DNA of 24,000 nucleotides from an uncultured Coriobacteriaceae bacterium (GCA_902801175.1 CADCHF010000011.1:25263-49262), one strand, 5' to 3'. Positions 1 through 19,845 are shown, counted from the stretch's first letter. Translations and numbers: made by a program. Notes: generated from the letters alone by a model not told the origin.

Positions 1-1037
1 CGGTCCGACGGAATGGTGGCAACCTTCTTGAGGAAGGTGTTGCGCGGCGTGGTGTTGGCGATCTCCTCGCCGTTGACCTTGATCGAACCGCTCTCGGCCT
101 TGACGATGTTGGTGATGGCGTCCACCAGCTCCTGCTGGCCGTTGCCGTCGATACCTGCGATACCCACGATCTCGCCCGCATGGATGTCAAGATTGAGGCC
201 GCGCACCTGCTCGATGCCGCGGTCGTCCTTGACGGTGAGGTCGCGGATCGAGAGGACGACATCGCCCGGGTGGGCCGGCGTCTTCTCAACCGTGAGGTTG
301 ACGTTGCGGCCGACCATCTTGGAGGCCAGCTCGGTCTCGTTGGTCTGGTGCACGTCGACCGTGCCCATGTAGACGCCGCGACGGATGATGGAGCACTCGT
401 CGGCGGACTGCATGATCTCCCTGAGCTTGTGGGTGATGATGATGATCGTCTTGCCCTTGGCAATCAGGTCATGCATGATCTCGATGAGCTTCTCGATCTC
501 TTGCGGGGTAAGGACGGCCGTGGGCTCGTCCAGAATCAGCACCTCGGCACCGCGGTAGAGAGCCTTGAGAATCTCGACGCGCTGCTGCATGCCCACCGTA
601 ATGTCCTGGATCTTTGCGTCGGGGTCGACGTCAAAGCCGTACTCCTCGACGAGCTCCATGACCTGCTTGCGCGCGCGGGCCATGTCAAGAACGCCAGCCG
701 CGCCGCAGACCTCATCGCCAAGGATGATGTTCTCGGTCACGGTGAAGTTCTCGACCAGCATGAAGTGCTGGTGCACCATGCCGATGCCGTGCTTGATGGC
801 CTCGGTTGGGTTGGTAATGCTGACCTTCTCGCCACCCATGAAAATATCGCCCTCATCGGCCTGGTAGAGGCCATAGAGGATGTTCATGAGCGTGGTTTTG
901 CCGGCGCCGTTCTCGCCCAAGATTGCATGGACCGTCTGCTTCTTGACGTCAAGATCCACGCGGTCGAGGGCCGTGAACGCACCGAAGGTCTTTAGAATGC
1001 CGTGCATCTGCACCGCATACTCCGGACTCGCTTCCAC
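1..1037 (-). CDS. ABC transporter ATP-binding protein (BMP/nucleoside-type), N-terminal part; the gene continues past the window start
   Basis: Absent from the ORF track because it has no stop in the window. Reverse-strand translation starts at GTG 1037, with GGGAGG at 1044-1049 six nt upstream. It reads VEASPEYAVQMHGILKTFGAFTALDRVDLDVKKQTVHAILGENGAGKTTLMNILYGLYQADEG... The Walker A is GENGAGKTT, the signature-like motif is TVGMQQRVEILKAL, and the Walker B is VLILDEPTAVL. The listed + ORF 180..995 is its antisense shadow. It lies directly downstream of a BMP-family binding lipoprotein gene. Confidence 0.9.
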   Translation of the reverse strand, partial: MEASPEYAVQMHGILKTFGAFTALDRVDLDVKKQTVHAILGENGAGKTTLMNILYGLYQADEGDIFMGGEKVSITNPTEAIKHGIGMVHQHFMLVENFTVTENIILGDEVCGAAGVLDMARARKQVMELVEEYGFDVDPDAKIQDITVGMQQRVEILKALYRGAEVLILDEPTAVLTPQEIEKLIEIMHDLIAKGKTIIIITHKLREIMQSADECSIIRRGVYMGTVDVHQTNETELASKMVGRNVNLTVEKTPAHPGDVVLSIRDLTVKDDRGIEQVRGLNLDIHAGEIVGIAGIDGNGQQELVDAITNIVKAESGSIKVNGEEIANTTPRNTFLKKVATIPSD

Positions 1038-1176
1038 GTGCCACCTCCCTAGATTGACTCCGCATACATGATAGTTGACCGCACACTGTGGAGGATACGT
1101 GAACCCGATACTTTTTAGGCCAGAAATGGCACAGCGCTCATCCATATGCGGGTGGCATAGGCACGCCGCGCGGAGG

Positions 1177-1211
1177 GTGACACACAAACTCCCACGGAGA
1201 GAATGTGTCAC
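1177..1211. repeat. Perfect 8-bp inverted repeat GTGACACA-N19-TGTGTCAC in the intergenic region between the binding-protein gene and the ATPase gene
   Basis: Read directly: GTGACACA at 1177-1184 and TGTGTCAC at 1204-1211. The same 8-mer recurs at 8995, 11537 and 11654. Function is unknown; a possible operator or RNA structure. Confidence 0.5.
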
Positions 1212-2448: not shown

Positions 2449-3162
2449 TTACTCGGCGTTCTGTGCAGCCACGTCAAGTGCTATTTCCATCATCTCAGTG
2501 AAACTATTTTGACGGTCTTCAGCCGAGAGGCTTCCCTCGCGCAGCACGAGGTCCGAAACGGTCATGATGCCAAGCGCGCGCTTGCCAGCGGCAATGGCGT
2601 TGAGGTAAAGCGCGGCCGCCTCCATCTCTACGCCAAGCACGCCCATGGCCGCCCACGCCTCGCTGCCCGCGCGGTCGCTGTAGAAGACGTCGGACGAGAG
2701 AAGGTTGCCCACGTGGTAGCGAGCGCCGCGTGCCTCGGCCGCCTCAACGGCCTGGCGAAGCATGGTGTAGTCGGCAATGGGGGCAATGGTGCCCGGCAGC
2801 TTGTACTGCGCCGCAAAGTTGGAATCGGTGCAGGCGCCCTGGCCAATGACGATGTCGCGGAGCTCCACCTGCGGCGCCAGACCGCCCGCGCTGCCGATGC
2901 GGATGATGGCGTCAACGTCATAGAAGTGATAGAGCTCGTAGGAGTAGATGGCAATGGAGGGAATGCCCATGCCGCTACCCATGACCGACACGCGCTTGCC
3001 CTGGTAGGTGCCCGTGTAACCAAACATGTTGCGTACCTGGTTGAAGCAGGTGACGTCGCTCAGATAGTGCTCGGCAACGTACTTGGCGCGCAGGGGGTCG
3101 CCGGGCATGAGCACGACCTTGGCAATATCGCCGGGTTTTGCGGAGTTGTGCGGGGTTGACAT
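2449..3162 (-). CDS. deoD: Purine nucleoside phosphorylase, DeoD type (hexameric)
   Basis: ORF 2449..3435, trimmed to ATG 3162 with an AAGGAGA RBS. The protein [31 protein letters not shown]...[10 protein letters not shown]...TVSD aligns along its length with E. coli DeoD as I recall it ([31 protein letters not shown]...). It is 237 aa. Confidence 0.95.
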   Translation of the reverse strand: [237 protein letters not shown]

Positions 3163-3241: not shown

Positions 3242-4426
3242 CTATGCAAGCAGTTGCTCGAGCCTGCTCTCGCCCGTTGTGAGCGGGGTGGCGCCCAGAT
3301 AGTCGAGCACCGTGGCAGACAGGTCGGCAAAGGTCGGGAGCGTGCCCAGGTCTGCGCCTGCCTTGACGCGAGGTCCTGCCACGAGCCACGGCACGTACTC
3401 GCGGCTGTGGTCGGTGGAGGGCGTGACAGGGTCACAGCCGTGGTCGGCCGTGATCATGAGCAGGTCGTCCTCGCGCAGCTTGGCCAGCATCTCGGGCAGC
3501 TTGGAATCAAAGTAGCTGATGGCGCGCGCGTAGCCGTCCACGTCGTTGCGGTGGCCATAGATCATGTCGGTGTCGACCAGGTTGGTGTAGCAAAGGCCAT
3601 TAAAGTCGCGGTCCATCCAGGCAATGGTCTTGTCAATGCCATCGGGGTTGTCCTTGGTGAGGATGTGGTCGGTGGTGCCGCGACCCGCAAACAGGTCAAA
3701 GATCTTGCCAACGGCCAGCACGTCAAAGCCCTCCTCCTTGAGGCGGTCGAGCATCGTGGTGCCCGTAGGCTCAAGCGAGAAGTCGTGGCGGCGCTTTGTG
3801 CGCTGGTAGGGCCACTCCCCCTCAAACGGACGTGCGATTACGCGGCCCACGGCATGCTCGCCGGTGAGCTGCTCGCGAGCAATGCGGCAGTACTCGTAGA
3901 GCTGCTCGGGCGGGACCACACTCTCGTGCGCGGCAATCTGAAAGACGCTGTCGGCGGAGGTGTACACAATGAGCGAGCCCGTCTCCACCTGCTCACGACC
4001 ATAGTCACGAATGACGTCGGTGCCCGAGTACGGGAGGTTGCAAATGACCTTGCGGCCAGTAGCCTGCTCAAAGGGCTCGAGCACCTCTGGTGGGAATCCC
4101 TGCGGATACGTGGGGAACGGCCGTGGGCTAATGACGCCGGCCATCTCCCAGTGACCGACCGTGCTGTCCTTGCCCTGGCTTGCCTCCTGCAGGCGCGCGA
4201 AGGCGCCCTTGGGGTCGCTCACCGGTACCAGACTGTGCGTGTAGACCGACTCGAGTGCTCCCTCGATGTTGCAAAGGCCCAGGCCGCTCAGGTTGGGGAT
4301 GTTAAACAAGGGGCTGGTGGCACATGCGCACAGCGTGTTTGAGCCCTCGTCGCCCCAGGCTGCAGCATCTGGCTCCTCGCCAATGCCAAAGCTATCGAGC
4401 ACGATCACAAAGACTCGCTTGCTCAT
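3242..4426 (-). CDS. deoB: Phosphopentomutase
   Basis: A 394-aa ORF: MSKRVFVIVLDSFGIG...SGKDSTVGHWE...YTSADSVFQIAAHE...GRVIARPF...ITADHGCDP...DHSREYVP. These are canonical DeoB metal-binding and active-site blocks. It lies downstream of deoD on the same strand. Confidence 0.95.
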   Translation of the reverse strand: MSKRVFVIVLDSFGIGEEPDAAAWGDEGSNTLCACATSPLFNIPNLSGLGLCNIEGALESVYTHSLVPVSDPKGAFARLQEASQGKDSTVGHWEMAGVISPRPFPTYPQGFPPEVLEPFEQATGRKVICNLPYSGTDVIRDYGREQVETGSLIVYTSADSVFQIAAHESVVPPEQLYEYCRIAREQLTGEHAVGRVIARPFEGEWPYQRTKRRHDFSLEPTGTTMLDRLKEEGFDVLAVGKIFDLFAGRGTTDHILTKDNPDGIDKTIAWMDRDFNGLCYTNLVDTDMIYGHRNDVDGYARAISYFDSKLPEMLAKLREDDLLMITADHGCDPVTPSTDHSREYVPWLVAGPRVKAGADLGTLPTFADLSATVLDYLGATPLTTGESRLEQLLA

Positions 4427-4543: not shown

Positions 4544-5476
4544 ATGGAACACACTGCGCAAGGCGCGCCTTACGTCGTAGTTATTGGCGGGGCAAACATG
4601 GACATCTGCGGAAGGCCCGAGGGGTCGCTCGTTGCGGGCGACTCCAACCTGGGGACGGTGCGCCTCTCCCCCGGCGGCGTGGGCAGAAACATTGCCCACA
4701 ACCTGGCGCTTTTGGGCGTGGACTGTCGCCTGGTCACGGCCTTTGGCGAGGACGCGCAGGCAGACGCGCTGGTGGAGAGCTGCACTCAGGCGGGAATCGA
4801 CGTGACGCTCTCGTTTGCGGTGGCCGGTGCCGCCACCTCGACCTACCTCTATGTGACCGATGCTGCCGGCGAGATGCAGGTGGCCATAAACGACATGGCC
4901 ATTTTGGAGGAGCTGACCCCGGAGCGGCTAGGCACGCACCTTGACGCAATCAACGCAGCACGCATTGTGGTTGTGGACACCAACCTGCCAGCCGCCACAC
5001 TGGGCTGGATCTGCGAGCATGTGAGCGCACCGATCTGGTGCGACCCCATCTCCACCGTCAAGGCGCATCGCGTCGAGGGGCTTCTTGGGTCGCTTTCCGC
5101 GCTCAAGCCCAACCGGCTTGAGGCGGAGGAGCTCATGGGAGTGCACATCTGTGACGAGCCCAGCCTGCAAGAGGCGGTGCGCAAGCTGCTTGGCAAGGGG
5201 CTTGAGCGGGTCTTTCTCTCACTTGGCGCAGACGGCCTGCTTTGCGCGCAGGGAGACGAGCTGCACCTTTTGCCTAACGCCCCTTGCAAGCTGGTGAACA
5301 CCACCGGTGCCGGTGACGCCATGATGGCCGGGCTGGTGTGGGCCGAGCTGCAGGGGCTGGGGCTCGCCGAGGCCGGCCAAGCTGGCCTTGCCGCCGCATC
5401 CCTCGCCGTTGAGAGCTCCGTCACCGTGAACCCACTCATGAGCGAGGCCGCCCTGCGCGAACGGCTTGGCCGCTAG
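4544..5476 (+). CDS. psuK: PfkB-family carbohydrate kinase, probable pseudouridine kinase
   Basis: A 310-aa ORF with an AAGGAGG RBS at 4530-4536. It has the N-terminal VVVIGGANMDI and GGVGRNIA motifs and the PfkB signature NTTGAGDAMMAG. It lies immediately upstream of psuG, as in the E. coli yeiC-yeiN pair. Substrate assignment rests on that context. Confidence 0.75.
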   Translation: MEHTAQGAPYVVVIGGANMDICGRPEGSLVAGDSNLGTVRLSPGGVGRNIAHNLALLGVDCRLVTAFGEDAQADALVESCTQAGIDVTLSFAVAGAATSTYLYVTDAAGEMQVAINDMAILEELTPERLGTHLDAINAARIVVVDTNLPAATLGWICEHVSAPIWCDPISTVKAHRVEGLLGSLSALKPNRLEAEELMGVHICDEPSLQEAVRKLLGKGLERVFLSLGADGLLCAQGDELHLLPNAPCKLVNTTGAGDAMMAGLVWAELQGLGLAEAGQAGLAAASLAVESSVTVNPLMSEAALRERLGR

Positions 5477-5551: not shown

Positions 5552-6487
5552 ATGAAGCATTCAAAGCTTAACCAGTTCCTCGACCTCACGCCCGAGGTCG
5601 CCGAGGCTCTCGCCAACAACAAGCCCGTTGTGGCGCTGGAGTCCACGATCATCTCCCACGGCATGCCCTACCCGCAAAACGTCGAGACCGCCCTGCGCGT
5701 GGAGGCCATCGTGCGCGAGCATGGCGCCGTGCCCGCAACGGTCGCCGTCATTGGCGGTCGCCTGCGCGCCGGCCTTACCCCCGACGAGATCGACTACCTG
5801 GGGCGCAAGGGCCGCGAGGTCATCAAGGTGAGCCGCCGCGACCTGCCCGTGGTCGTGGCGCGCGGGCTTGACGGTGCCACAACGGTTGCCTCCACCATGA
5901 TTGTGGCGGCACTGGCAGGCATCGACGTGTTTGCCACCGGCGGCATTGGCGGCGTGCACCGCGGCGCCGAGACCACAATGGACATCTCGGCCGACCTCGA
6001 GGAGCTTGCCATGACCCCGGTCATGGTCGTGTGCGCTGGTGCCAAGTCGATCCTCGACCTGGGGCTCACGCTTGAGTACCTTGAGACCAAGGGCGTGCCG
6101 GTGCTGGGCTATGGCACCGAGGAGCTGCCCGCCTTCTACACGCGCCACTCTGGCTTTGGCGTTGACTACCGCGTGGACACCCCGGCCGAGCTGGCCTCCA
6201 TCCTGCACACGCAGCGCAAGCTCGACTTCCCCGGCGGCATCCTTGTGGGCAACCCCATCCCTGAGGAGTACTCGATGGACAAGGCGACCATCGACGCCGC
6301 CATTGACCAGGCTCTGGCCGAGTGCGATGAGCAGGGCATTCACGGCAAGGAGACCACGCCCTTCCTGCTGGCGCGCATTGCCGAGATCACGGGCAACGAC
6401 TCGCTCGACTCCAACATCCAGCTGGTCTTTAACAACGTGGCCCTTGGTGCCGAGATTGCCAAGGAGCTCTGTGCGCTGAGGGCGTAA
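5552..6487 (+). CDS. psuG: Pseudouridine-5'-phosphate glycosidase
   Basis: ORF 5510..6487, trimmed to ATG 5552 (GGAAGGA RBS). The protein MKHSKLNQFLDLTPEVAEALANNKPVVALESTIISHGMPYPQN...FATGGIGGVHRG...DISADLEEL...VVCAGAKSILD is the characteristic YeiN/IndA family sequence. Confidence 0.9.
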   Translation: MKHSKLNQFLDLTPEVAEALANNKPVVALESTIISHGMPYPQNVETALRVEAIVREHGAVPATVAVIGGRLRAGLTPDEIDYLGRKGREVIKVSRRDLPVVVARGLDGATTVASTMIVAALAGIDVFATGGIGGVHRGAETTMDISADLEELAMTPVMVVCAGAKSILDLGLTLEYLETKGVPVLGYGTEELPAFYTRHSGFGVDYRVDTPAELASILHTQRKLDFPGGILVGNPIPEEYSMDKATIDAAIDQALAECDEQGIHGKETTPFLLARIAEITGNDSLDSNIQLVFNNVALGAEIAKELCALRA

Positions 6488-6574: not shown

Positions 6575-7852
6575 CTATGCCTGGGGCAAGGGGTCGTTTT
6601 TCCCGCAGGCATCCAAAAGCTCGGACAGCAGCCGCATGGCCTCTGCCACATCTCGCGGAACCACGTGATACAGCAGCTCGAGGAACACAAAGAACGACCC
6701 GAGGCCCACAAAGATGCCGTCGAACAGGGCCGAGTCAACGGTTGCGAGCAAGCGCTCGGTACGCGGGAACAACCACCAGGCCGCCGTTGTGGAAAGCACG
6801 CCGTACACGAGGGAGTTCTACAGGCAGATCTGCCCCTTGTAGTTGAAGGGCATGTCGCGGTAGTCCCACAGCTCGTAGTTGCGGTTGGCCACCATGCCCG
6901 TGCCAAAGTCTATGGCCGTACAGACCGCCTGGTTTATAAGGAAGGTGGCCGCGATGGCGAGCGCGGTCACAGCACGTGCAGGCAGCACGCGGGCAAAGGC
7001 CTGAGCCTGTACCCAAGCGTGGATGGCATTCTTGGCAGGATAGAGAAGCGTGGCCATGAGCACGGCCACAATGCCCTCGGCAGGAAACGGAAAGAGCCAT
7101 TGGTCCCACAGCATGTGGTTCTCGCGGTCGTATCCGCCGCGGATGAGGCCGTACTTGATGCCCATGCAAAACAGCATCTCTCCCCAGTGGCCCAGCAGCG
7201 CAAACACCATGTAGTACAGGCCAAGGCTACGAAGCAGCGGCCAGCGTGAGCGAAGTGCCTGGGGTATTGCTGCGGCAAGCCTTGCGCCAAGCGCTGGCCC
7301 CACGGCGACAGTGCTCGCCACCGACAGGGGCAGTGCCACCGCATGCAGGCCGGGCATTCGTACGTTAAAGATGCGGTCTCGCCAAGAGCCCGTGCGCCAG
7401 GTGCGGGTCACATACGTGCCAAAGTGAACCACCTGCGCCGCTCCGAGCCCAGATGCCACAGCTGCCGTGGCGACCGAGATGGGCAGCGCCGCCCACGACC
7501 GCCTAAAGGCGAGCCAGGTTGCAAGCGCCGTTCCAGCCACGCTGGTGCCAGCACGCCAAAAGCTGAGGTCATAGGGCAGTTGGTCTGGGTCCGAAGCCGC
7601 GGCGTAGGCATACCATCCGCCCACGATTGAGACCGCGTGCGCACCAGGCACGAGCGTGGCGAGAAGCGGCGTAACCGCGGCGCTGCGCAAGCGTGTGCGA
7701 GCGCGCTCAACGCTAGGGCTGTCGTTGCCAGCACTCGGCACAGGCTCAGGACGAAGGATGTCCCTTAGCTTGGGCATGGCAAGCCGCACCGCATGACATG
7801 CGATCTTGCACGTGGCTACTGGGCCATACGTAAGCAGCGCGTTTGTAGGCAT
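6575..7852 (-). pseudogene. Polytopic membrane protein with a C-terminal 'putative ABC-transporter type IV' (PF06541/CmpB-like) domain, interrupted by an in-frame TAG at 6818-6820
   Basis: ORF 6818..7852 ends ...NRNYELWDYRDMPFNYKGQICL*. The same frame continues directly as NSLVYGVLSTTAAWWLFP... (track ORF 6575..6808, whose M is really an in-frame GTG Val codon). I verified the codon phase base by base. The stop falls in the middle of the conserved WDY...PFN..G.ICL.NSL..G block of this family. Confidence 0.7.
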
Positions 7853-7963: not shown

Positions 7964-8734
7964 CTAAGCGCGCTCTCCAACCTTGGCGTCGGGCAAGCGC
8001 AGCAGATAGACAGCATAGCCAACGCATAGGCACAGGCTAATGGCAAGGCTCGCCAAGATCGCCATGCCCCGCGAGCCAAAGAGGGCAATCTGCGCAGCCT
8101 CGTTCTCAAACGCGCTGAAAGCGTTGTTGGCCGCATGGAAGATGACGCACGGCCAAATGCTGCCGCTCTTGAGCAGCGTCATAACTAGCACAAAGCCCAC
8201 CGCTATGGCAGAGACGATCTGCACCAACGTTGTAAAGAGGTCCTGTCCCGTTGCATTGAAGAGGTTCACGATGTGGCCAAGGCCAAAGGTGACCGACGAG
8301 ACCACCACCGCGCTCGTGCGCCCGTTCTCCTCCATCCCACGAAAGAGGAGTCCACGAACCACCAGCTCTTCGATATAGCCCACAAAGCACATGGCCAGCA
8401 CGTAGCAGAGGCATTCCAGGGCCGAGCCCTGCGCAGCGATGCCAAAGAAGAGCTTTTTGGTTGCAACGATTGCAAGCGGAACGTACCAAAGCATGCGCCT
8501 GGCAGAGACATTCGGCGCGCAGAGCCCAAAACGCTCCCCCAGCCCCGCATGGCGCACCCACGTCCAAAGGAGGACGGTCATGGCAAACAGCACAGGTGCC
8601 GTAACCAGCTTGGGCGTACCAAGGTCGAGCGAGGCGGCATCGGCCTCTGACGCCAGAACCACGTACGCCACGATCCAACCGACCGCATACCATACGTGGT
8701 CCTTCTCGTAGAGCCTGTCGAGCAGCTTGAGCAT
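7964..8734 (-). CDS. CPBP family intramembrane glutamic endopeptidase (CAAX protease/Abi family)
   Basis: A 256-aa multi-TM ORF with the three family motifs: YIEELVVRGLLF (EExxxR), FGLGHIVN (FxxxH) and CVIFHAANNAF (HxxxN/D). The RBS is GGGAAGG. Confidence 0.85.
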   Translation of the reverse strand: MLKLLDRLYEKDHVWYAVGWIVAYVVLASEADAASLDLGTPKLVTAPVLFAMTVLLWTWVRHAGLGERFGLCAPNVSARRMLWYVPLAIVATKKLFFGIAAQGSALECLCYVLAMCFVGYIEELVVRGLLFRGMEENGRTSAVVVSSVTFGLGHIVNLFNATGQDLFTTLVQIVSAIAVGFVLVMTLLKSGSIWPCVIFHAANNAFSAFENEAAQIALFGSRGMAILASLAISLCLCVGYAVYLLRLPDAKVGERA

Positions 8735-8878: not shown

Positions 8879-9020
8879 CTATCAAGAGACGTTTGCGGGC
8901 TTTCCGTCATGGCGCTCGTCGCAGAACGTGCATTGTGCTTCTTCTCTTCTCGCTCGTGCGGCAACGCAGGCGCGCGGTATCATTAGTGCAACTAGTGACA
9001 CAGAGCACGCGGAGGCGCAC

Positions 9021-10535
9021 ATGAGCGAGTTCATGGACATCATCACTGCTAGCAACCTCACCTACGGCCAAAAGCTCATCCATCTGGCACAGGCCGCCGA
9101 GAACTGCGAGCACCCTATTCCCACCACGCCTGAGTTTGACTGGTTCTTTGAGCGTGACGCCATCTGCGACATGCACGAGGGCAACGCGCCCTACCGTCCG
9201 CGCTACATCTGCTGCGACATGGAGCGCTTTGCTCGCCAGGGTAGCGAGTTTTTGCGTCTTGACGCACCGGACAACCTCGATGACCTGCTCATGAACCTGC
9301 AGATCCTCTACCAAAACGTGCCATCCGTCACCGGGCGCCCGGTGTACGTGGGCCAGCTCGACCGTCTGTTTGACCCCTTCCTGGACGGTCTCTCGGACGA
9401 AGAGATCCTCCCGCGTTTCAAGCGTTTCCTCAACTACATTGACCGCACGGTGGCCAGCGGCTACTGCCATGCCAACCTTGGCCCCGAGGACACGCGCGCC
9501 GGCCGTCTGCTGCTGCAGGCAGACGCCGAGGTCCAGAACGCCGTCCCCAACTTTACGCTCAAGTACGAGGAGGGCATCACCCCCGACGACTTCGCGCGCC
9601 TTGCGCTCAAGACGTCCATGGCCTGCGCCAACCCCGCCTATGCCAACCACCGCATGCACAAGCACACCTACGCTGCCCCCGTTGACGGCCCGGCAGACGG
9701 CTACACGGTTGTCTCCTGCTACAACGTGCTGCCCATCCGCGGCGGCGCCTACTGCCTTGACCGCGTGAAGCTCTCGCAGCTGGCCGACCTTGCCACCTCG
9801 CCGGAGCACCTGCTCAACGAACTGCTCCCCAGCGCCACGGGCGCCCTGCTCGAGTACATGGACGCGCGCATCAAGTTCTTGGTCGAGGACTCCAACTTCT
9901 TCCAGACCTCGTTCCTGGCGCGCGAGGGCCTCATTGAGCGCGAGCGCTTTGTGGGCATGTTTGGCATGATCGGCATGCACGAGTGCATCGAGAAGCTGCT
10001 TGGTCCTGGGCACGTGTATGGCACCGACCCCGAGGCCAACGACCTTGCCGACCAGATCATGACCAAGATGACCGCGCAGGTGCAGGCCTGGAACGCTCCC
10101 TACTCCGAGATTGGCAACGGCCGCTACCTCATGCACGCACAGGCCGGCTTTGGCGACCAGACCTCTTCCACGCCCGGCGTGCGCATTCGCGTGGGCGACG
10201 AGCCCGAGGTCTTCTTTGACCATCTGCGCCACTGCGCTCGCATGCACCGCTTCTTTAAGGCGGGCGTGTCCGACATCTTCCCGGTGGAGCCCACGGCCGC
10301 GCAGAACGTGGACGCCCTGCTCGATGTTGTTAAGGGCGCCTTTGCCATTGACGACACCTACCTCTCGTTCTATCCCTCCGACTCCGACCTGGTTCGCATC
10401 ACGGGCTTCCTCGTGAAGCGTTCCGAAATGGAGAAGTTTGCCCGCGGCGAGGCCGTTCTTGCAGACACCAGCCACGACGGCGAGGGCAACTGGCGCGCCA
10501 ACAACCTGGCCGACCGCAAGGTCCGTCTGGGGTAA
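9021..10535 (+). CDS. yjjI: YjjI-family glycine radical enzyme (DUF3029), function unknown
   Basis: ORF 8928..10535, trimmed to ATG 9021 (GGAGG at 9011-9015). The 504-aa protein starts MSEFMDIITASNLTYGQKLIHLAQ. A C-terminal glycyl-radical fingerprint, DLVRITGFLVKR, has its Gly codon at 10404-10406 (residue 462). A dedicated activase gene follows immediately. Overall length and the N-terminal sequence match my recollection of E. coli YjjI. Confidence 0.88.
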   Translation: MSEFMDIITASNLTYGQKLIHLAQAAENCEHPIPTTPEFDWFFERDAICDMHEGNAPYRPRYICCDMERFARQGSEFLRLDAPDNLDDLLMNLQILYQNVPSVTGRPVYVGQLDRLFDPFLDGLSDEEILPRFKRFLNYIDRTVASGYCHANLGPEDTRAGRLLLQADAEVQNAVPNFTLKYEEGITPDDFARLALKTSMACANPAYANHRMHKHTYAAPVDGPADGYTVVSCYNVLPIRGGAYCLDRVKLSQLADLATSPEHLLNELLPSATGALLEYMDARIKFLVEDSNFFQTSFLAREGLIERERFVGMFGMIGMHECIEKLLGPGHVYGTDPEANDLADQIMTKMTAQVQAWNAPYSEIGNGRYLMHAQAGFGDQTSSTPGVRIRVGDEPEVFFDHLRHCARMHRFFKAGVSDIFPVEPTAAQNVDALLDVVKGAFAIDDTYLSFYPSDSDLVRITGFLVKRSEMEKFARGEAVLADTSHDGEGNWRANNLADRKVRLG

Positions 10536-10557
10536 GGCCCAACAGGTAACTTTTGCA

Positions 10558-10584
10558 GGGGACGGCCAGGGGGTGGTCGTCCCC
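10558..10584 (+). other. Stem-loop between the glycyl radical enzyme gene and the activase gene (possible partial terminator or attenuator)
   Basis: GGGGACG (10558-10564) pairs perfectly with CGTCCCC (10578-10584). TCTTCTTTAT follows. It lies 23 nt after the yjjI stop and ends 26 nt before the activase ATG. Confidence 0.3.
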
Positions 10585-10609
10585 TCTTCTTTATGGGGAG
10601 GGCATTCTC

Positions 10610-11449
10610 ATGGAGCTCTATGCACCGGTCAACAAGATGATTCCGTTTTCGCTGGTAGATGGACCGGGATCGAGGTGCTCGATCTTTCTGCAGGGCTGCA
10701 ACATTGCCTGCGCATACTGCCACAACCCCGAGACGCAAAACCTTTGTCTTGAGTGCGGCACCTGCGTTGATCAGTGCCCAGCAGGCGCCCTGTACTGGGA
10801 TGACGGGCACGTAAGGTGGAACAAGGACGCGTGCGTGCAGTGCGACACCTGCATCCACGTGTGTCCACACAAGGCCAGCCCCAAGATTGAATGGCTTACG
10901 CCTCGCGATGTGTTTGAGACCGTGCACTCGTACCAGCCCTTCATTCGCGGTATCACCGTGTCGGGCGGCGAGTGCATGCTGCGCGCCGATTGGATGCGTG
11001 AGCTGTTTGCCCTTTGTCGAGAGGCTGGCTTGGGGACGCTCATCGACAGCAACGGGTGTGTGCCCTTTGAGGGGCAAGACGAGCTGCTGAGCGTTGCGGA
11101 TGGCGTGATGCTCGACGTTAAGGCCTGGGACGAGGCGACCTTTGAGCATCTGACCAGCGGAGACGTGCGTGTGGTCAAGCGCAACCTGGCGCTACTTGCC
11201 GAGCGAGACAAAATCGAGGAGCTGCGCATAGTTGTTGTGCCCGGCTGGAACGACCCCGAGGCAACCATCGCGGGCATCGCTGAGGTGCTGGGTCAGAAGA
11301 CCGCCGCCACCAAGCTGAAGCTCATTCGCTTCCGCAGGTTTGGCGTGGTGGGAGAGCTGGCCGAAGCGGACTCCCCCACCGACGAGCGCATGGCCGAGCT
11401 CGAGAAGCTCGCGAGGAATGCCGGCTTTGAGCTGGTGGAACTCCGCTAG
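10610..11449 (+). CDS. yjjW: YjjW-family glycine radical enzyme activase (radical SAM)
   Basis: ORF 10553..11449, trimmed to ATG 10610 (GGGGAGGG RBS, 7-nt spacer). It has the N-terminal activase motif IPFSLVDGPGSRCSIFLQGCNIACAYCHNPE (CxxxCxxC). Two ferredoxin-type motifs are present: CLECGTCVDQCP and CVQCDTCIHVCP. The SAM-binding GITVSGGEC motif is also present. Confidence 0.9.
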   Translation: MELYAPVNKMIPFSLVDGPGSRCSIFLQGCNIACAYCHNPETQNLCLECGTCVDQCPAGALYWDDGHVRWNKDACVQCDTCIHVCPHKASPKIEWLTPRDVFETVHSYQPFIRGITVSGGECMLRADWMRELFALCREAGLGTLIDSNGCVPFEGQDELLSVADGVMLDVKAWDEATFEHLTSGDVRVVKRNLALLAERDKIEELRIVVVPGWNDPEATIAGIAEVLGQKTAATKLKLIRFRRFGVVGELAEADSPTDERMAELEKLARNAGFELVELR

Positions 11450-11749: not shown

Positions 11750-12745
11750 TTACCCGCAGATGATGGTGCGTAGGCGTGCCTTGGCTGGCTCATCGGCAAA
11801 GCTCGCGTCCACCGCGTTTTGCAGCAGCTGCGTGACCTCGGCATCTCCTAGGCCAAGCTCGCTTGCCAGCAGCATGAGCTCCTGGCTAACCCAGGTGTTG
11901 GACACGGAGTTGTTGTCCGAGCACACAACCACCTTGCAGCCAGCCTTGAGCAGCGTGTCCACAGCACGCACGCCAACCTGGTCAAGTGCTCCGGTTTGCA
12001 GCTCAGAGGTGTAGCACACCTCAATGGGCACCTGTCGCTCGGCAAGCTCACGAACGAGGCCGGGATCCTCAACGGCCCTCACGCCATGGCCAATGCGGCT
12101 CGCGCCCATGGCAAGCGCGTCGCGCACGCTCTTCGGTCCGTCGGCCTCTCCGGCATGTATGGTAAACGGCACGCCAAGCTCACGGGCCCGCTCAAAGAGC
12201 GGAGCGAAGTCCGCCGTGGGAAAGAGCGCCTCGGCACCCGCAAGGTCTGCCGCCACTATCTCGTTGCCCAGATACTCGGCCGAAAGCTCTATCGTCTCGA
12301 GATTGGCCTCAAAGTTGTCTGCGCCGCGCATGCAGCACAGGATCAGCCGGGCCTCAAAGCTCGACCGCCTGAGGCCCCTGAGCGCAGCCTCGACCACCTC
12401 GCGCTGCGTAAGGCCCCGCTCGCGCAGCGACTGCGGAGCAAAGCGCAGCTCGGCGTACGCATAGCCGCGCTGCAGCAGCTCCTCTTGCAAGAGATAGATG
12501 TGCTCCTCGACCTGCTCGCGCGTTTGGATGAGCGAGAGCGGGAACACAAACTTGTCCAGGTACTCGTTAAGGTCCTCGCAGCTGTCCCCCACCGACAGGC
12601 GGTCAAAGACCTCCGCGTCGCTCACATCGAGCGGAATGCCGCCCAGCTCGGCCAGACGTCGGGCGGCAGGAACGCTGATGGAGCCATCGCTGTGAAGGTG
12701 CAGGTCAACAAGGCGCCCGCGTAGGCGCTCAAGACTTACCGTCAT
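11750..12745 (-). CDS. add: Adenosine deaminase
   Basis: A 331-aa ORF. It has the N-terminal metal-binding VDLHLHSDGS motif (HxH), FTIHAGEADGP (the HAGE motif) and VVCSDNNSVSNT (the C-terminal Asp motif of the Gram-positive Add type). Its ATG is 3 nt after the deoC stop. Confidence 0.85.
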   Translation of the reverse strand: MTVSLERLRGRLVDLHLHSDGSISVPAARRLAELGGIPLDVSDAEVFDRLSVGDSCEDLNEYLDKFVFPLSLIQTREQVEEHIYLLQEELLQRGYAYAELRFAPQSLRERGLTQREVVEAALRGLRRSSFEARLILCCMRGADNFEANLETIELSAEYLGNEIVAADLAGAEALFPTADFAPLFERARELGVPFTIHAGEADGPKSVRDALAMGASRIGHGVRAVEDPGLVRELAERQVPIEVCYTSELQTGALDQVGVRAVDTLLKAGCKVVVCSDNNSVSNTWVSQELMLLASELGLGDAEVTQLLQNAVDASFADEPAKARLRTIICG

Positions 12746-12748
12746 GCC

Positions 12749-13390
12749 CTACCCCTCGATGATGGCGATGCTGGCACTCGTGCCCAGCCTGTCGGCGCCT
12801 GCGGCAACCATGGCCTCGGCCTCGGCACGGGCGTGCATGCCACCTGCGGCCTTGACCTTGCAGCGGTCGCCCACGGTCTGGCGCATGAGCTCCACATCGT
12901 GCACCGTGGCACCACCGGTCGAGAATCCCGTGCTCGTCTTGACAAAGTCCGCCCCAGCGGCAACGGAGCACTCGCACGCGCGCACGATCTCTTCGTCGGT
13001 AAGCAGGCAGCACTCCAAAATGACCTTCACCTTTGCGTCACCCGCAGCTTCGACCACTGCAGCAATGTCGCGCGTGCAGAACTCGTCATCGCCATCCTTA
13101 AGGCGCCCCACGTTGATGACCATGTCAATCTCGGTGGCACCGTCGGCCACAGCCTGAGCCGTCTCGGCAGCCTTGGCCAGCGTGGAGCAGGCCCCCAGGG
13201 GGAAGCCCACCACGGTGGTCACGCCCACGCCCCAGCCGGCCACAAGGGCTGCCGCGAGTGAGGTCCAACTGGAGTTAACGCACACGGTGGCAAACCTGTG
13301 CTCGCGGGCCTCGTCGCAGAGGCGCTCGATGTCTGCACGACGTGCATCCTGCTTGAGGTTGGTGTGGTCGATGATGGCGCTCAGCTGCAT
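12749..13390 (-). CDS. deoC: Deoxyribose-phosphate aldolase
   Basis: ORF 12749..13585, trimmed to ATG 13390 (AAGGAGAAACC upstream). The 213-aa protein reads [16 protein letters not shown]...ATVCVN...VVGFPLGA...IDMVINVG...VKVILE...[10 protein letters not shown] (Schiff-base Lys)...KVKAAGG. This is the classic class I DeoC pattern. Confidence 0.92.
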
Positions 13391-17793: not shown

Positions 17794-18852
17794 CTACTTA
17801 CGGATGTCTCCCCTGTCCACAGAGATCTCGTAACCAATGAGATTCATGCGCAGGCCCAGGCAACCCTTGCACTGCGCGGACTCCTCGCCGGTGCAAATCT
17901 TGTTGTCGTAGAGCTCGTACTGCTTGCGAACGGCAACGGGAGACAGGTTGGGCATCACCACGTTGGCACCCGCGAGCATCCCCTTCTCGCGACCGCGCGG
18001 GTCAATGGTTCCGAGGGCCGTCGTTGCCGGCAGCAGAACGTTGGGATAGATGAGCCTTATCAGACTCAGCAGGTAAAGGGTCATGTCGAGCGTGCCGGCC
18101 GGCTCATCGCGAAACGGCGTGTCGTGGTGCGGGATAAAGGGGCCAATGCCGCACATGTCGGGCTTGAAGTCCTCCACAAAGCGCAGCTCCTGCACCAGGT
18201 GCTCCATCGTTTGGAAGGGCGAGCCGACCATGAAGCCCGCGCCAACCTGAAAGCCCACCTCACGCAGGTCGCGCAGGCACTGCATGCGATGTTCCCAGCT
18301 CATGGTTGCAGGATGCAGCCGGGCGTAGTGCTCGGGATTGGCCGTCTCGTGGCGCAGCAGGTAGCGCGATGCGCCCGCGTCAAACAGGTGCTGGTAGCTC
18401 TCGCGGTTCCGCTCTCCCATCGAGAGGGTGACGGCCGTGTCGGGGCAGCTCTCACAGATGCGGCGCACCACGTCCCCTAGCACCTCGTCGGCGTAGTACG
18501 CGTCCTCGCCGCCCTGAAGCACAATGGTGCGAAATCCCAGCTCCCAGCCCTCGCGCGCACAGTCGACAATGGTGTCGGGCTCTAGGCGATAGCGCTCCAC
18601 GTTGGTGTTTGAGCGCCTAATGCCGCAGTACAGGCAATCGTTTTTGCAGATGTTGGAAATCTCGATGAGCCCACGCACAAAGACCTTCTTGCCATAGATG
18701 GGCTCTCGGGCCTCCACCGCTTTCTCTGCCAGCAGCTCCGCCAGCTCGGGCGAGCGGTTTGCAAGCAGCGCGCGGTAACCCTCGTCATCAAGGTGATGCT
18801 CACTGGCAAGCTGGTCGACCAGCGCCACCAGCTCGGCAGATGGTTGGCTCAT
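17794..18852 (-). CDS. hydE: [FeFe]-hydrogenase H-cluster radical SAM maturase HydE
   Basis: A 352-aa ORF. IEISNICKNDCLYCGIRRSN carries the CxxxCxxC motif. Other blocks are IVLQGGED, YLLRHETANP, GAGFMVG, CGIGPFIPHHDTP, LPATTALGTI, GANVVMPN and YELYDNKIC. They match block by block the Thermotoga maritima HydE sequence as I recall it, and the length is right. Confidence 0.9.
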   Translation of the reverse strand: MSQPSAELVALVDQLASEHHLDDEGYRALLANRSPELAELLAEKAVEAREPIYGKKVFVRGLIEISNICKNDCLYCGIRRSNTNVERYRLEPDTIVDCAREGWELGFRTIVLQGGEDAYYADEVLGDVVRRICESCPDTAVTLSMGERNRESYQHLFDAGASRYLLRHETANPEHYARLHPATMSWEHRMQCLRDLREVGFQVGAGFMVGSPFQTMEHLVQELRFVEDFKPDMCGIGPFIPHHDTPFRDEPAGTLDMTLYLLSLIRLIYPNVLLPATTALGTIDPRGREKGMLAGANVVMPNLSPVAVRKQYELYDNKICTGEESAQCKGCLGLRMNLIGYEISVDRGDIRK

Positions 18853-18856
18853 GGCA

Positions 18857-18896
18857 GGTTCCTCTCGGTCGGATGAGAATCCTCTCAGTCGGATGT
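18857..18896. repeat. Tandem 20-nt direct repeat covering the hydE Shine-Dalgarno region
   Basis: On the + strand, CCTCTCGGTCGGATG (18861-18875) and CCTCTCAGTCGGATG (18881-18895) are 14/15 identical with a 20-nt period. On the minus strand this reads CATCCGACTGAGAGGATTCT CATCCGACCGAGAGGAACCT GCC ATG, so the GAGAGG SD is duplicated. Confidence 0.6.
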
Positions 18897-18919
18897 TCCA
18901 TCAATATACGAAACGCTCG

Positions 18920-18940
18920 GCAAATGCAAGCCGCATTTGC
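18920..18940. promoter_or_regulatory. Perfect palindrome GCAAATGC-N5-GCATTTGC in the hydE / nifH-like divergent control region (candidate operator)
   Basis: Read directly at 18920-18927 and 18933-18940, near the centre of the 211-bp divergent intergenic region. Function is inferred from position only. Confidence 0.3.
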
Positions 18941-19063
18941 GTTGTACAGATGGCGAAGCCTTCTAGAAGAAGAGACGGCTATAGGCTTTTGCTATGATGG
19001 CCCTGTACACTCACGATCTGACCGCGAGGACCTGTCCAAGCAGGAAGACACGAGGTTTTTACC

Positions 19064-19843
19064 ATGCTCAAGATTGCTCTTTATGGCAAGGGCGGCATCG
19101 GCAAGTCCACGATGACCAGCAACCTTGCCGCCGCATTTGCCACGTTGGGTAAGCGCGTCATCCAGATTGGCTGCGACCCCAAGGCCGACTCCACCATCAA
19201 CCTGCTCGGCGGGCAGCCGCTTGAGCCCGTCATGACCTACCTGCGGCTCCATGACGACGACCCCAGCTCGATCGACGAGATTGCGCGCGAGGGCTTTGGC
19301 GGAGTCCTTTGCATTGAGACCGGTGGACCCACCCCGGGCCTTGGCTGCGCCGGCCGTGGCATCATTGCCACCTTTAACCTGCTCGAGGACCTGCGCCTCT
19401 TTGAGACCTACCAGCCCGACGTGGTCCTCTACGACGTGTTGGGCGATGTGGTGTGCGGAGGCTTTGCCGCCCCCATTCGCGAGGGCTATGCCGAAAAGGT
19501 GCTCATCGTCACCTCTGGCGAGAAGATGGCCCTCTATGCGGCAAACAACATCAGCACCGCCGTGCACAACTTTGAGGACCGCGGCTACGCCAAGGTCGCC
19601 GGCATCATCCTCAACCATCGCAACGTGCCCGACGAGACCGCCAAGGTCCAGGCCTTTGCCGACGAGCACGACCTTGCCATTGTGGCCGAGATTCCTCGCT
19701 CCGACGATATCAACCGCTGCGAGGACCAGGGCATGACGGTTGTGGAAGCCGACCCGACCCTTCCCGTGAGCCGTCGCTTTATTGAGCTGGCCGAGCAGCT
19801 GCTCGCCAATGCCGAGGCCGACCACACACCCGAGCAGGAGTAA
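19064..19843 (+). CDS. NifH/BchL-family nitrogenase-iron-protein-like ATPase ([4Fe-4S] dimer type)
   Basis: A 259-aa ORF. The Walker A is [10 protein letters not shown] and switch I is GCDPKADST. Both cluster-ligand cysteines sit in canonical context: [15 protein letters not shown] (C95) and [17 protein letters not shown] (C131). These compare with NifH ESGGPEPGVGCAGRGVI and [17 protein letters not shown]. It also has [13 protein letters not shown]. Confidence 0.9.
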
Positions 19844-19845
19844 CC

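Follow-up and report, generated by a model that had tools for sequence, protein, structure and literature searches.

Association of the YjjI-YjjW glycyl radical enzyme system with nucleoside catabolism genes in an uncultured Coriobacteriaceae bacterium and across bacterial phyla

The window analysed here is a stretch of 24,000 nucleotides from an uncultured Coriobacteriaceae bacterium (GCA_902801175.1, CADCHF010000011.1:25263-49262), with a G+C content of about 62%. It carries yjjI and yjjW, which encode a glycyl radical enzyme (GRE) of the YjjI family and its radical S-adenosylmethionine (radical-SAM) activase, lying among genes for the import and breakdown of nucleosides (Table 1). The pair belongs, as an unremarkable member, to a family that is named yet uncharacterised. 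Its association with the breakdown of nucleosides is real and widespread, and was not found stated in the papers, family models and genome annotations that were searched.

The yjjI reading frame begins at an ATG preceded by a ribosome-binding site. An initial annotation made from the sequence had described its product as a YjjI protein with a glycyl radical motif at Gly462, and had proposed that the family membership of enzyme and activase be confirmed. Curated models bear out both: YjjI scores 578.4 bits against TIGR04040 (cutoff 498.3), over positions 2-497 of the 497 in the profile, and 649 bits against PF11230, with the R-I-T-G loop in the expected place, while YjjW scores 364.9 bits against TIGR04041 (cutoff 250.2). 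The window YjjI shares 98% identity with the YjjI of rumen Coriobacteriaceae/Atopobiaceae metagenome-assembled genomes (MAGs) RUG12252 and RUG13541, and the host is of the Atopobiaceae/Coriobacteriaceae type. In an alignment of 62 family members R459 and G462 are invariant, T461 is invariant or nearly so, and Cys233 is the sole invariant cysteine, in the context S-C-(Y/F)-N. A second cysteine, C202, is kept among close relatives, and 14 distant members have T, A, L or I in its place. Further invariant polar residues are E53, R61, Y62, D141, H150, T187, N235, R248, H372, Q374 and R388. An AlphaFold2 model built on the 62 sequences (predicted local distance difference test 93.1, predicted template-modelling score 0.92) places these residues on or beside the barrel strands and Cys233 at the tip of the beta-hairpin 228-231/235-238, so that the thiyl-radical loop, which the initial annotation had left to be located, is predicted there.

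The activase had been recognised by a CxxxCxxC motif and two ferredoxin-type motifs, all three of which were found. A two-cluster ferredoxin domain occurs in most GRE activases and is missing from those of pyruvate formate-lyase (PFL-AE) and of class III ribonucleotide reductase (NrdG) (PMC13450708). The start of yjjW is most likely the ATG at 10610 rather than the TTG at 10553, because the ribosome-binding site GGGGAGGG precedes this ATG and the family model aligns from residue 24 of the open reading frame (ORF). The gap between the yjjI stop codon and the yjjW start is 75 nt and holds a hairpin with an RNA folding energy of -33.6 kcal/mol (z = -2.3), which is common only to the closest relatives (loci L002 and L011). 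This hairpin could possibly act as a partial terminator or attenuator, lowering the activase relative to the enzyme.

Around the pair lies a deo-type set, with DeoD, DeoB, DeoC and Add above their NCBIfam cutoffs and a BMP-type nucleoside-binding lipoprotein besides. The psuK-like kinase has pseudouridine kinase as its best NCBIfam model, with 226 bits, under the cutoff of 540. The raw ORF lists hold many antisense artefacts because of the high G+C content, and the real genes were picked by family searches. The flanks are those first described, deoD-deoB and psuK-psuG on the left and add-deoC on the right, except that psuG and yjjI are split by two minus-strand membrane-protein genes. These two genes, which are probably outside the yjjI system, occupy a site that in sister lineages is taken by psuG-crp, immediately ahead of yjjI. 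The comparison suggests that an insertion or replacement here removed the regulator in the window lineage. The locus resembles deo-type loci with BMP/PnrA importers in its BMP protein, ATP-binding cassette (ABC) ATPase, DeoD, DeoB, DeoC, Add and PsuK/PsuG. Classical descriptions of such loci include no radical enzyme, whereas in the window and in many anaerobes yjjI-yjjW is embedded or co-transcribed.

Table 1. Positions of the yjjI-yjjW pair, its motifs and other genes in the window.
Feature	Position	Strand	Product or match
Ribosome-binding site GGAGG	9011-9015		precedes yjjI
yjjI	9021-10535 (stop codon included)	+	504-aa YjjI-family glycyl radical enzyme; start ATG 9021
Cys233 codon, S-C-Y-N loop	9717-9719	+	predicted thiyl-radical cysteine
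Glycine loop R-I-T-G, residues 459-462	10395-10406	+	predicted radical site Gly462, codon 10404-10406
GC-rich hairpin, yjjI stop to yjjW start	10557-10585	+	12 pairs; terminator-like scan
yjjW	10610-11449	+	radical-SAM activase, 279 aa
CX3CX2C radical-SAM cluster motif CNIACAYC	10697-10720	+	
Two ferredoxin-type CxxCxxCxxxC motifs	10745-10777 and 10832-10864	+	auxiliary cluster domain; Fer4 family matches
ABC transporter ATPase, edge-truncated	3-1211	-	sugar-type two-domain ABC ATPase matches
BMP/PnrA nucleoside-binding lipoprotein, same importer as ATPase	1274-2380 (ORF coordinates)	-	PF02608 241 bits
deoD, purine nucleoside phosphorylase	2449-3162	-	NF004489 338 bits (cutoff 230); alignment begins at ORF residue 92; inferred start Met92
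deoB, phosphopentomutase	3242-4426	-	NF003766 494.7 bits (cutoff 256)
psuK-like PfkB-family kinase	4544-5476	+	PF00294 171 bits
psuG, pseudouridine-5'-phosphate glycosidase	5552-6487 (start inferred)	+	PF04227 454.8 bits
PF06541 membrane protein gene	6818-7852	-	
CPBP protease membrane protein gene	7964-8734	-	
add, adenosine deaminase	11750-12745	-	TIGR01430 234.9 bits (cutoff 216.6)
deoC, deoxyribose-phosphate aldolase	12749-13390	-	TIGR00126 262 bits (cutoff 117); alignment begins at ORF residue 68; inferred start Met66, ORF running to 13585
HydE radical-SAM maturase gene	in 17794-22242	-	TIGR03956 552 bits
NifH-like ATPase gene	19064-19843		
Fused nitrogenase-component-1-like gene	19846-22242		798 aa; NifE/N/D/K-like

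The same two families are found in Escherichia coli (TIGR04040/TIGR04041; PF11230, formerly DUF3029), with the same pair order, the invariant glycine and cysteine, and deo neighbours. The initial annotation had placed yjjW-yjjI next to deoCABD in K-12, and the map of MG1655 agrees: yjjW (b4379) and yjjI (b4380) are both minus-strand genes, and 257 bp separate them from deoC, with which deoCABD begins. Between the window and E. coli, the identity of YjjI amounts to 38%. The E. coli pair is divergent from deoCABD with no BMP importer nearby, whereas the window pair stands between psuKG/deoBD/BMP-ABC and add-deoC. RefSeq names the K-12 products 'DUF3029 domain-containing protein YjjI' and 'putative glycyl-radical enzyme activating enzyme YjjW', and NCBIfam grades the YjjI model 'hypoth_equivalog'. 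As had been stated beforehand, no reaction is assigned to YjjI/YjjW in the full-text literature, the Protein Data Bank, NCBIfam or the E. coli K-12 RefSeq annotation. Full-text literature on YjjI, YjjW, DUF3029, PF11230 and TIGR04040 gave only mentions of expression or regulons and a single co-expression prediction from 2011, and a search pairing glycyl radical enzymes with nucleosides gave nothing relevant. A review of glycyl radical enzymes from June 2026 names neither YjjI nor nucleosides (PMC13450708).

Two samples of loci were compared across bacteria. For the first, one genome per GTDB species was scanned, which gave at least 596 YjjI loci; the best 80, together with the window and the E. 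coli locus, were analysed, and single linkage at 80% identity between YjjI proteins grouped them into 21 lineages. Neighbours were all ORFs of at least 70 aa, clustered by all-against-all BLASTP. For the second, metagenome contigs were searched; the query was an alignment of distant-branch members, which share 33-42% identity with the window YjjI. The best 80 loci gave 37 lineages, 23 of them informative with at least 6 kb of flank. A nucleoside-specific gene lies within 10 kb of yjjI in 18/21 lineages of the first sample and in 13/23 informative lineages of the second. The co-localisation count across phyla that the initial annotation had called for thus comes to 31/44 informative lineages, with the chance level estimated only. 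The density of nucleoside genes falls from 0.15-0.24 per kb at distances up to 7.5 kb to 0.055 per kb farther out. YjjW adjoins YjjI in all 21 lineages of the first sample and in 32/37 of the second. The other recurrent neighbours in the first sample are an ABC ATPase (17 lineages), an ABC permease (16), a BMP lipoprotein and a Crp-family regulator (15 each), DeoD (13), DeoB (9), a PfkB kinase (7), Cdd and a YitT-type membrane protein (6 each), DeoC, PsuG and an iron-type alcohol dehydrogenase (5 each), DeoA (3) and Add (2). The BMP family is also near yjjI in 11/37 lineages of the second sample, where IU-nucleoside hydrolase occurs in 5 lineages, often replacing DeoD. The association of yjjI is tightest with the BMP-type nucleoside ABC importer and with DeoD or IU-nucleoside hydrolase, and weaker with deoC.

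The association spans Actinomycetota, Bacillota, one Spirochaetaceae MAG and Enterobacterales, and the gene order changes within it. The arrangement is divergent in Atopobiaceae, E. coli and Edwardsiella, and in the last deoCABD lies near the pair with an additional NupC-type transporter after yjjW. In L062, L073, L061, L070, L113 and L139, yjjI-yjjW is followed by BMP, ATPase and permeases, co-directional and tightly spaced; in L052, L055, L050 and L102 the nucleoside genes are upstream of the pair. The tightest operon-level fusion seen is on a metagenome contig (L168:7131-13953), where yjjI-yjjW-cdd-deoA-deoC-deoB-deoD are co-directional with gaps mostly below 20 nt, apparently as one operon, divergent from a BMP ABC importer. 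Distant members whose context was annotated with Pfam give a similar picture, with nucleoside hydrolase, PfkB, purine nucleoside phosphorylase (PNP) and BMP beside P0121, nucleoside hydrolase and ABC permease beside P0124, ABC permease beside P0136, and adenosine deaminase and PfkB beside P0139.

Some loci carry additional genes. In L082 the order is nucleoside hydrolase, a gene of the ADP-ribosylglycohydrolase family, PfkB kinase, PNP, sulfatase-like gene, yjjI-yjjW, major facilitator superfamily transporter and BMP. The sulfatase-family gene, of 511 aa, is directly upstream of yjjI. The ADP-ribosylglycohydrolase-family gene occurs together with IU-nucleoside hydrolase both there (L082:1187-5341) and in L086:7449-8973, which may point to a modified substrate, ribosylated or otherwise, in this branch. 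In L173:608-12205, the BMP ABC importer is immediately preceded by NrdD and a short activase gene and followed by yjjI-yjjW, so that one nucleoside locus holds two radical enzymes. In several Atopobiaceae (L009-L013, L031, L037, L040; e.g., L013:13713-14939) the gene after deoC, on the downstream side of yjjW, encodes an iron-type alcohol dehydrogenase, which would fit the conversion of DeoC-derived acetaldehyde to ethanol.

Several points weigh against this association. Both samples consist of the best 80 loci and are thus biased toward relatives of the query, and the lineages share ancestry and are not independent events. Neighbours were taken from raw ORFs with no gene caller. Known copy numbers lead only to an estimated genome-wide background of about 0.004 nucleoside genes per kb, and to a rough expectation that such families lie near a random gene in less than 10% of cases. 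There are no nucleoside genes nearby in Proteus, P0131, P0137 and about eight long metagenome contigs, and several distant homologues are on contigs too short to judge. The gene deoC is near yjjI in a minority only (5/21 and 1/37 lineages). The link to (deoxy)ribose or nucleosides proposed in the initial annotation has its core in nucleoside import and glycosidic-bond cleavage, rather than in deoxyribose as such. A functional link between yjjI and nucleosides beyond chance adjacency, as had been argued, is judged real because the association lies far above the estimated chance level, recurs across phyla and survives changes of gene order; it is well supported and not universal.

The two proteins probably form a working glycyl radical enzyme with its dedicated activase, since the family cutoffs are passed, Gly462, Cys233 and the polar residues are invariant, and YjjW is adjacent in most lineages. 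It is likely that this functional radical enzyme is tied to nucleoside or pentose catabolism, and the pair would probably serve the anaerobic use of imported nucleosides. The anaerobic role is proposed because yjjI is activated by FNR in E. coli (PMC3688515) and induced without oxygen in Yersinia (PMC3792023). Matches to the FNR box in the E. coli yjjI-deoC region are no more frequent than in shuffled sequence.

Most Gram-positive relatives differ from E. coli, where expression depends on FNR, in having a dedicated regulator with a palindromic site, and the window has neither. In 15/21 lineages a Crp-family regulator, with a cNMP-binding domain and HTH_Crp, is directly upstream of yjjI. The palindrome AAAGGACAnnnTGTCCTTTT, with the core GGAC-N6-GTCC, occurs 35-110 bp upstream of the crp gene heading crp-yjjI-yjjW, or of yjjI itself in Lacrimispora. 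It was found in Atopobiaceae (Actinomycetota), Clostridia, Tissierellia and Bacilli (loci L009-L038, L051, L052, L057-L073 and L076-L081; e.g., L081:9214-9233 and L052:9153-9172), and is probably the operator of the Crp-type regulator. The additional copies present in L051 and L068 stand before genes that are uninformative. The GGAC-N6-GTCC operator and the Crp-type regulator are both missing from the window, a pattern read here as their loss in this lineage. In another branch of the family (L111 and L114-L122; e.g., L118:8939-9973) a regulator of the LacI family, to which PurR, CytR and RbsR belong, takes the place of the Crp-type one directly upstream of yjjI. E. coli YeiL lies in the nupX-rihB-psuTGK cluster; orthology of the Crp-type regulator with YeiL is not claimed, the identity being only about 24%, with an E-value of about 1e-6 against a small set. 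Regulator and operator offer a second handle on the function, as the inducer should be the pathway substrate.

The superfamily is divided into class III reductases and 'PFL-like' enzymes, with seven functional classes (PMC13450708). No solved YjjI structure was found in the Protein Data Bank. When the predicted model was compared with Foldseek, the top 24 matches were all class III ribonucleotide reductases (NrdD), from P. copri, T4, T. maritima and S. thermophilus, the best with an E-value of 8e-18 to 8p2s, and with query-normalised TM-scores of 0.6-0.77 at about 13% sequence identity. They were followed by dehydratases, the sugar-phosphate isomerases PflD and YbiW (8id0, 8id7) and PFL. YjjI shares with NrdD the ten-stranded radical-enzyme barrel, its best structural match and a resemblance of fold only, as well as an R-x-x-G-Y-type C-terminal glycine loop and a finger-loop thiyl cysteine, and ribose-ring chemistry is plausible in both. 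NrdD comprises 600-740 aa against about 500 for YjjI, and its activase NrdG has no two-cluster ferredoxin domain, unlike YjjW. Alignment with E. coli NrdD by hhalign puts C233 on C384 and R61-Y62 at C175, with low probability and a template of a single sequence. No match to the NCBIfam NrdD model was obtained at E <= 0.001, and Pfam NRDD reached 24.3 bits, below the gathering score of 26.2. YjjI lacks the Met-x-Cys motif of the finger loop (two positions ahead of C233 the 62 members have V, S or A), any cysteine after residue 405 for a Zn ribbon, and a Pfam match to the ATP cone. A class III reductase reading was accordingly rejected, as these features and the second cysteine are missing. The same applies to a PFL reading, since the Cys loop S-C-Y-N has no Cys-Cys pair and the window protein matches neither PF02901 nor PF01228.

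The C-x-E motif of the Cys loop marks the 1,2-eliminases and isomerases, namely glycerol/propanediol dehydratase, CutC, HypD, YbiW and PflD (PMC13450708). It is missing from YjjI, in which the residue two after C233 is the invariant N235. YbiW and PflD, formerly orphans of E. coli (PMC13450708), share with YjjI a single catalytic cysteine and a ferredoxin-domain activase; they differ in being 'PFL-like', with a size of about 770-810 aa and a C-x-E loop, where YjjI has about 500 aa and S-C-Y-N. Lacking the Cys-Cys pair, C-x-E and the cysteine pair of the reductases, YjjI fits none of the seven classes, and its modelled fold sits between the reductase and 'PFL-like' divisions.

The reaction would begin with established glycyl-radical chemistry, for which the pair carries all the required elements. 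YjjW, with one radical-SAM cluster and two auxiliary ones, would cleave S-adenosylmethionine and take a hydrogen from Gly462 of YjjI; the glycyl radical would give a thiyl radical on Cys233, which would abstract a hydrogen atom from the substrate. The partners of YjjI vary by lineage, with a phosphorylase, a hydrolase or PsuG, and with deaminases of purines or pyrimidines. The substrate is expected to be the product shared by all these routes, namely the ribose moiety, with ribose 5-phosphate or free ribose as its likeliest form. Loci with phosphorylase and mutase would lead from ribose 1-phosphate to ribose 5-phosphate, loci with hydrolase and a ribokinase-type kinase from ribose to ribose 5-phosphate, and the PsuK/PsuG route would also yield ribose 5-phosphate. 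A true ribokinase is present in L081 (349 bits, cutoff 300) and ribokinase-like kinases in L082 and L091. The sugar is favoured because ribokinase-type kinases recur and the closest fold performs radical chemistry on ribose. Ribose 1-phosphate is disfavoured because some loci have a hydrolase and no phosphorylase, and a single base because the bases vary among loci while the invariant residues of YjjI stay constant. Ribose 5-phosphate is the favoured form of the sugar, and several invariant arginines would suit a phosphate group.

On such a substrate YjjI could abstract the 3-hydrogen and eliminate the 2-hydroxyl in a redox-neutral step, as in the first half of ribonucleotide reduction. This half-reaction is favoured because YjjI has one catalytic cysteine in a reductase-like barrel. 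The resulting 2-deoxy-3-keto pentose phosphate would be passed to an ordinary reductase or dehydrogenase and then to DeoC, to give glyceraldehyde 3-phosphate and acetaldehyde. The precedent is set by the E. coli enzymes YbiW and PflD, in which the rearrangement of a sugar phosphate, 1,5-anhydroglucitol-6-P or 1,5-anhydromannitol-6-P, to 1-deoxyfructose-6-P comes before an aldolase step (PMC13450708). This specific sugar deoxygenation, which draws on the modelled fold, is put forward tentatively, as a possible rather than a probable chemistry. It has to face two objections: net deoxygenation needs a reductant, and the YjjI family lacks the second cysteine of the class III reductases. Ribose 5-phosphate, moreover, already has routes through the pentose phosphate pathway, which leaves the need for a radical enzyme unexplained. 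More speculative again is the idea that YjjI founds an eighth functional GRE class, small and reductase-like, which removes or rearranges the 2-hydroxyl of nucleoside-derived ribose in the form of ribose 5-phosphate, ribose or a ribonucleoside.

YjjI could act instead on the nucleoside itself, either as a radical lyase of the glycosidic bond or as a 2'-deoxygenase at the nucleoside level. The lyase would abstract the 2'-hydrogen and release the base, in the manner of 1,2-eliminations of the choline TMA-lyase type, and might serve nucleosides that are otherwise poorly handled, e.g., the modified ones from RNA. Such a role would suit a gene whose tightest partner is a nucleoside importer, often in the same operon, and whose nearest fold, NrdD, binds whole nucleotides; dedicated Crp-type or LacI-type regulators also suggest a specific inducer. 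Yet most loci already hold cleavage enzymes (DeoD, IU-nucleoside hydrolase, PsuG), the S-C-Y-N loop differs from the C-x-E of known 1,2-eliminases and isomerases, and a deoxynucleoside product would be ill-suited to the ribose-specific hydrolases of several loci. Action on the nucleoside is thus unlikely.

Another proposal would have YjjI transform the freed nucleobase, such as hypoxanthine, xanthine or uracil, under anoxic conditions and downstream of deaminases and a phosphorylase or hydrolase. Deaminases do recur nearby, in the form of Add, Cdd and, in L116, L122 and L139, an amidohydrolase, and so do enzymes that release bases. The variety of these bases from locus to locus, set against the constancy of the invariant residues, speaks against it, as do the absence of further base-degradation genes recurring in the neighbourhoods of either sample, the sugar chemistry of the nearest fold and the invariant arginines, which would suggest an anionic, phosphate-bearing ligand. 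Conversion of a base is therefore held to be quite unlikely, a shade below action on the nucleoside.

The gene order might also have been inherited with no shared pathway, YjjI taking part in another anaerobic process, e.g., one linked to nitrogen or nitrate, as co-expression in E. coli and Salmonella would allow. In the 2011 study yjjI was grouped with genes of the nitrate/nitrite regulon, an FNR-like motif was found and a role in 'nitrogen metabolism' was predicted (PMC3228777). Proteus, in Enterobacterales, keeps the serB-radA-nadR position with no deo genes, and about 30% of informative lineages are without nucleoside neighbours. Nevertheless, the association recurs across phyla with varied orders, orientations and nucleoside genes and with fusions into single operons, no nitrogen-metabolism genes recur near yjjI in either sample, and shared FNR control would explain the co-expression with the nitrate regulon. 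Mere inheritance of the order is regarded as improbable. Very improbable is a stripped-down class III ribonucleotide reductase making deoxyribonucleotides for DNA synthesis: the nearest solved folds are all NrdD, the weak NRDD match points the same way, the glycine-loop string RITGYLV is identical in P. copri NrdD and L173 has NrdD beside the importer and yjjI, but the second cysteine is lacking, its region aligning to R61-Y62, no Met stands two before the thiyl cysteine, Zn ribbon and ATP cone are lacking, the NCBIfam NrdD model is unmatched and the Pfam one below cutoff, the activase is of the ferredoxin-domain type and not NrdG, and E. coli carries a separate nrdDG. The paper on an E. coli line free of ribonucleotide reductases reports no anaerobic growth test and is uninformative on YjjI (PMC10121223).

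To the right of deoC the window continues with a PhzF-like gene, a helix-turn-helix regulator, a PatB-type C-S lyase, HydE and a nitrogenase-like pair. The NifH-like ATPase and the fused component-1-like gene, which stand beside HydE, appear from their sequences to form an uncharacterised nitrogenase-like system next to a hydrogenase maturase.

YjjI has no reaction in the sources searched, and YbiW and PflD, which were also orphans for a long time, have recently been assigned as sugar-phosphate isomerases. The link across phyla narrows the candidate substrates of YjjI to ribose, ribose phosphates, common nucleosides and bases. If the proposed sugar deoxygenation is true, ribonucleosides could enter a fermentation that runs by way of DeoC and yields glyceraldehyde 3-phosphate and acetaldehyde, which would provide gut and rumen bacteria with a new anaerobic route for RNA-derived carbon. 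YjjI would then mirror ribonucleotide reduction on the catabolic side, might be a surviving relative of the enzyme from which class III reductases descend, and would bear on the origin of ribonucleotide reduction.

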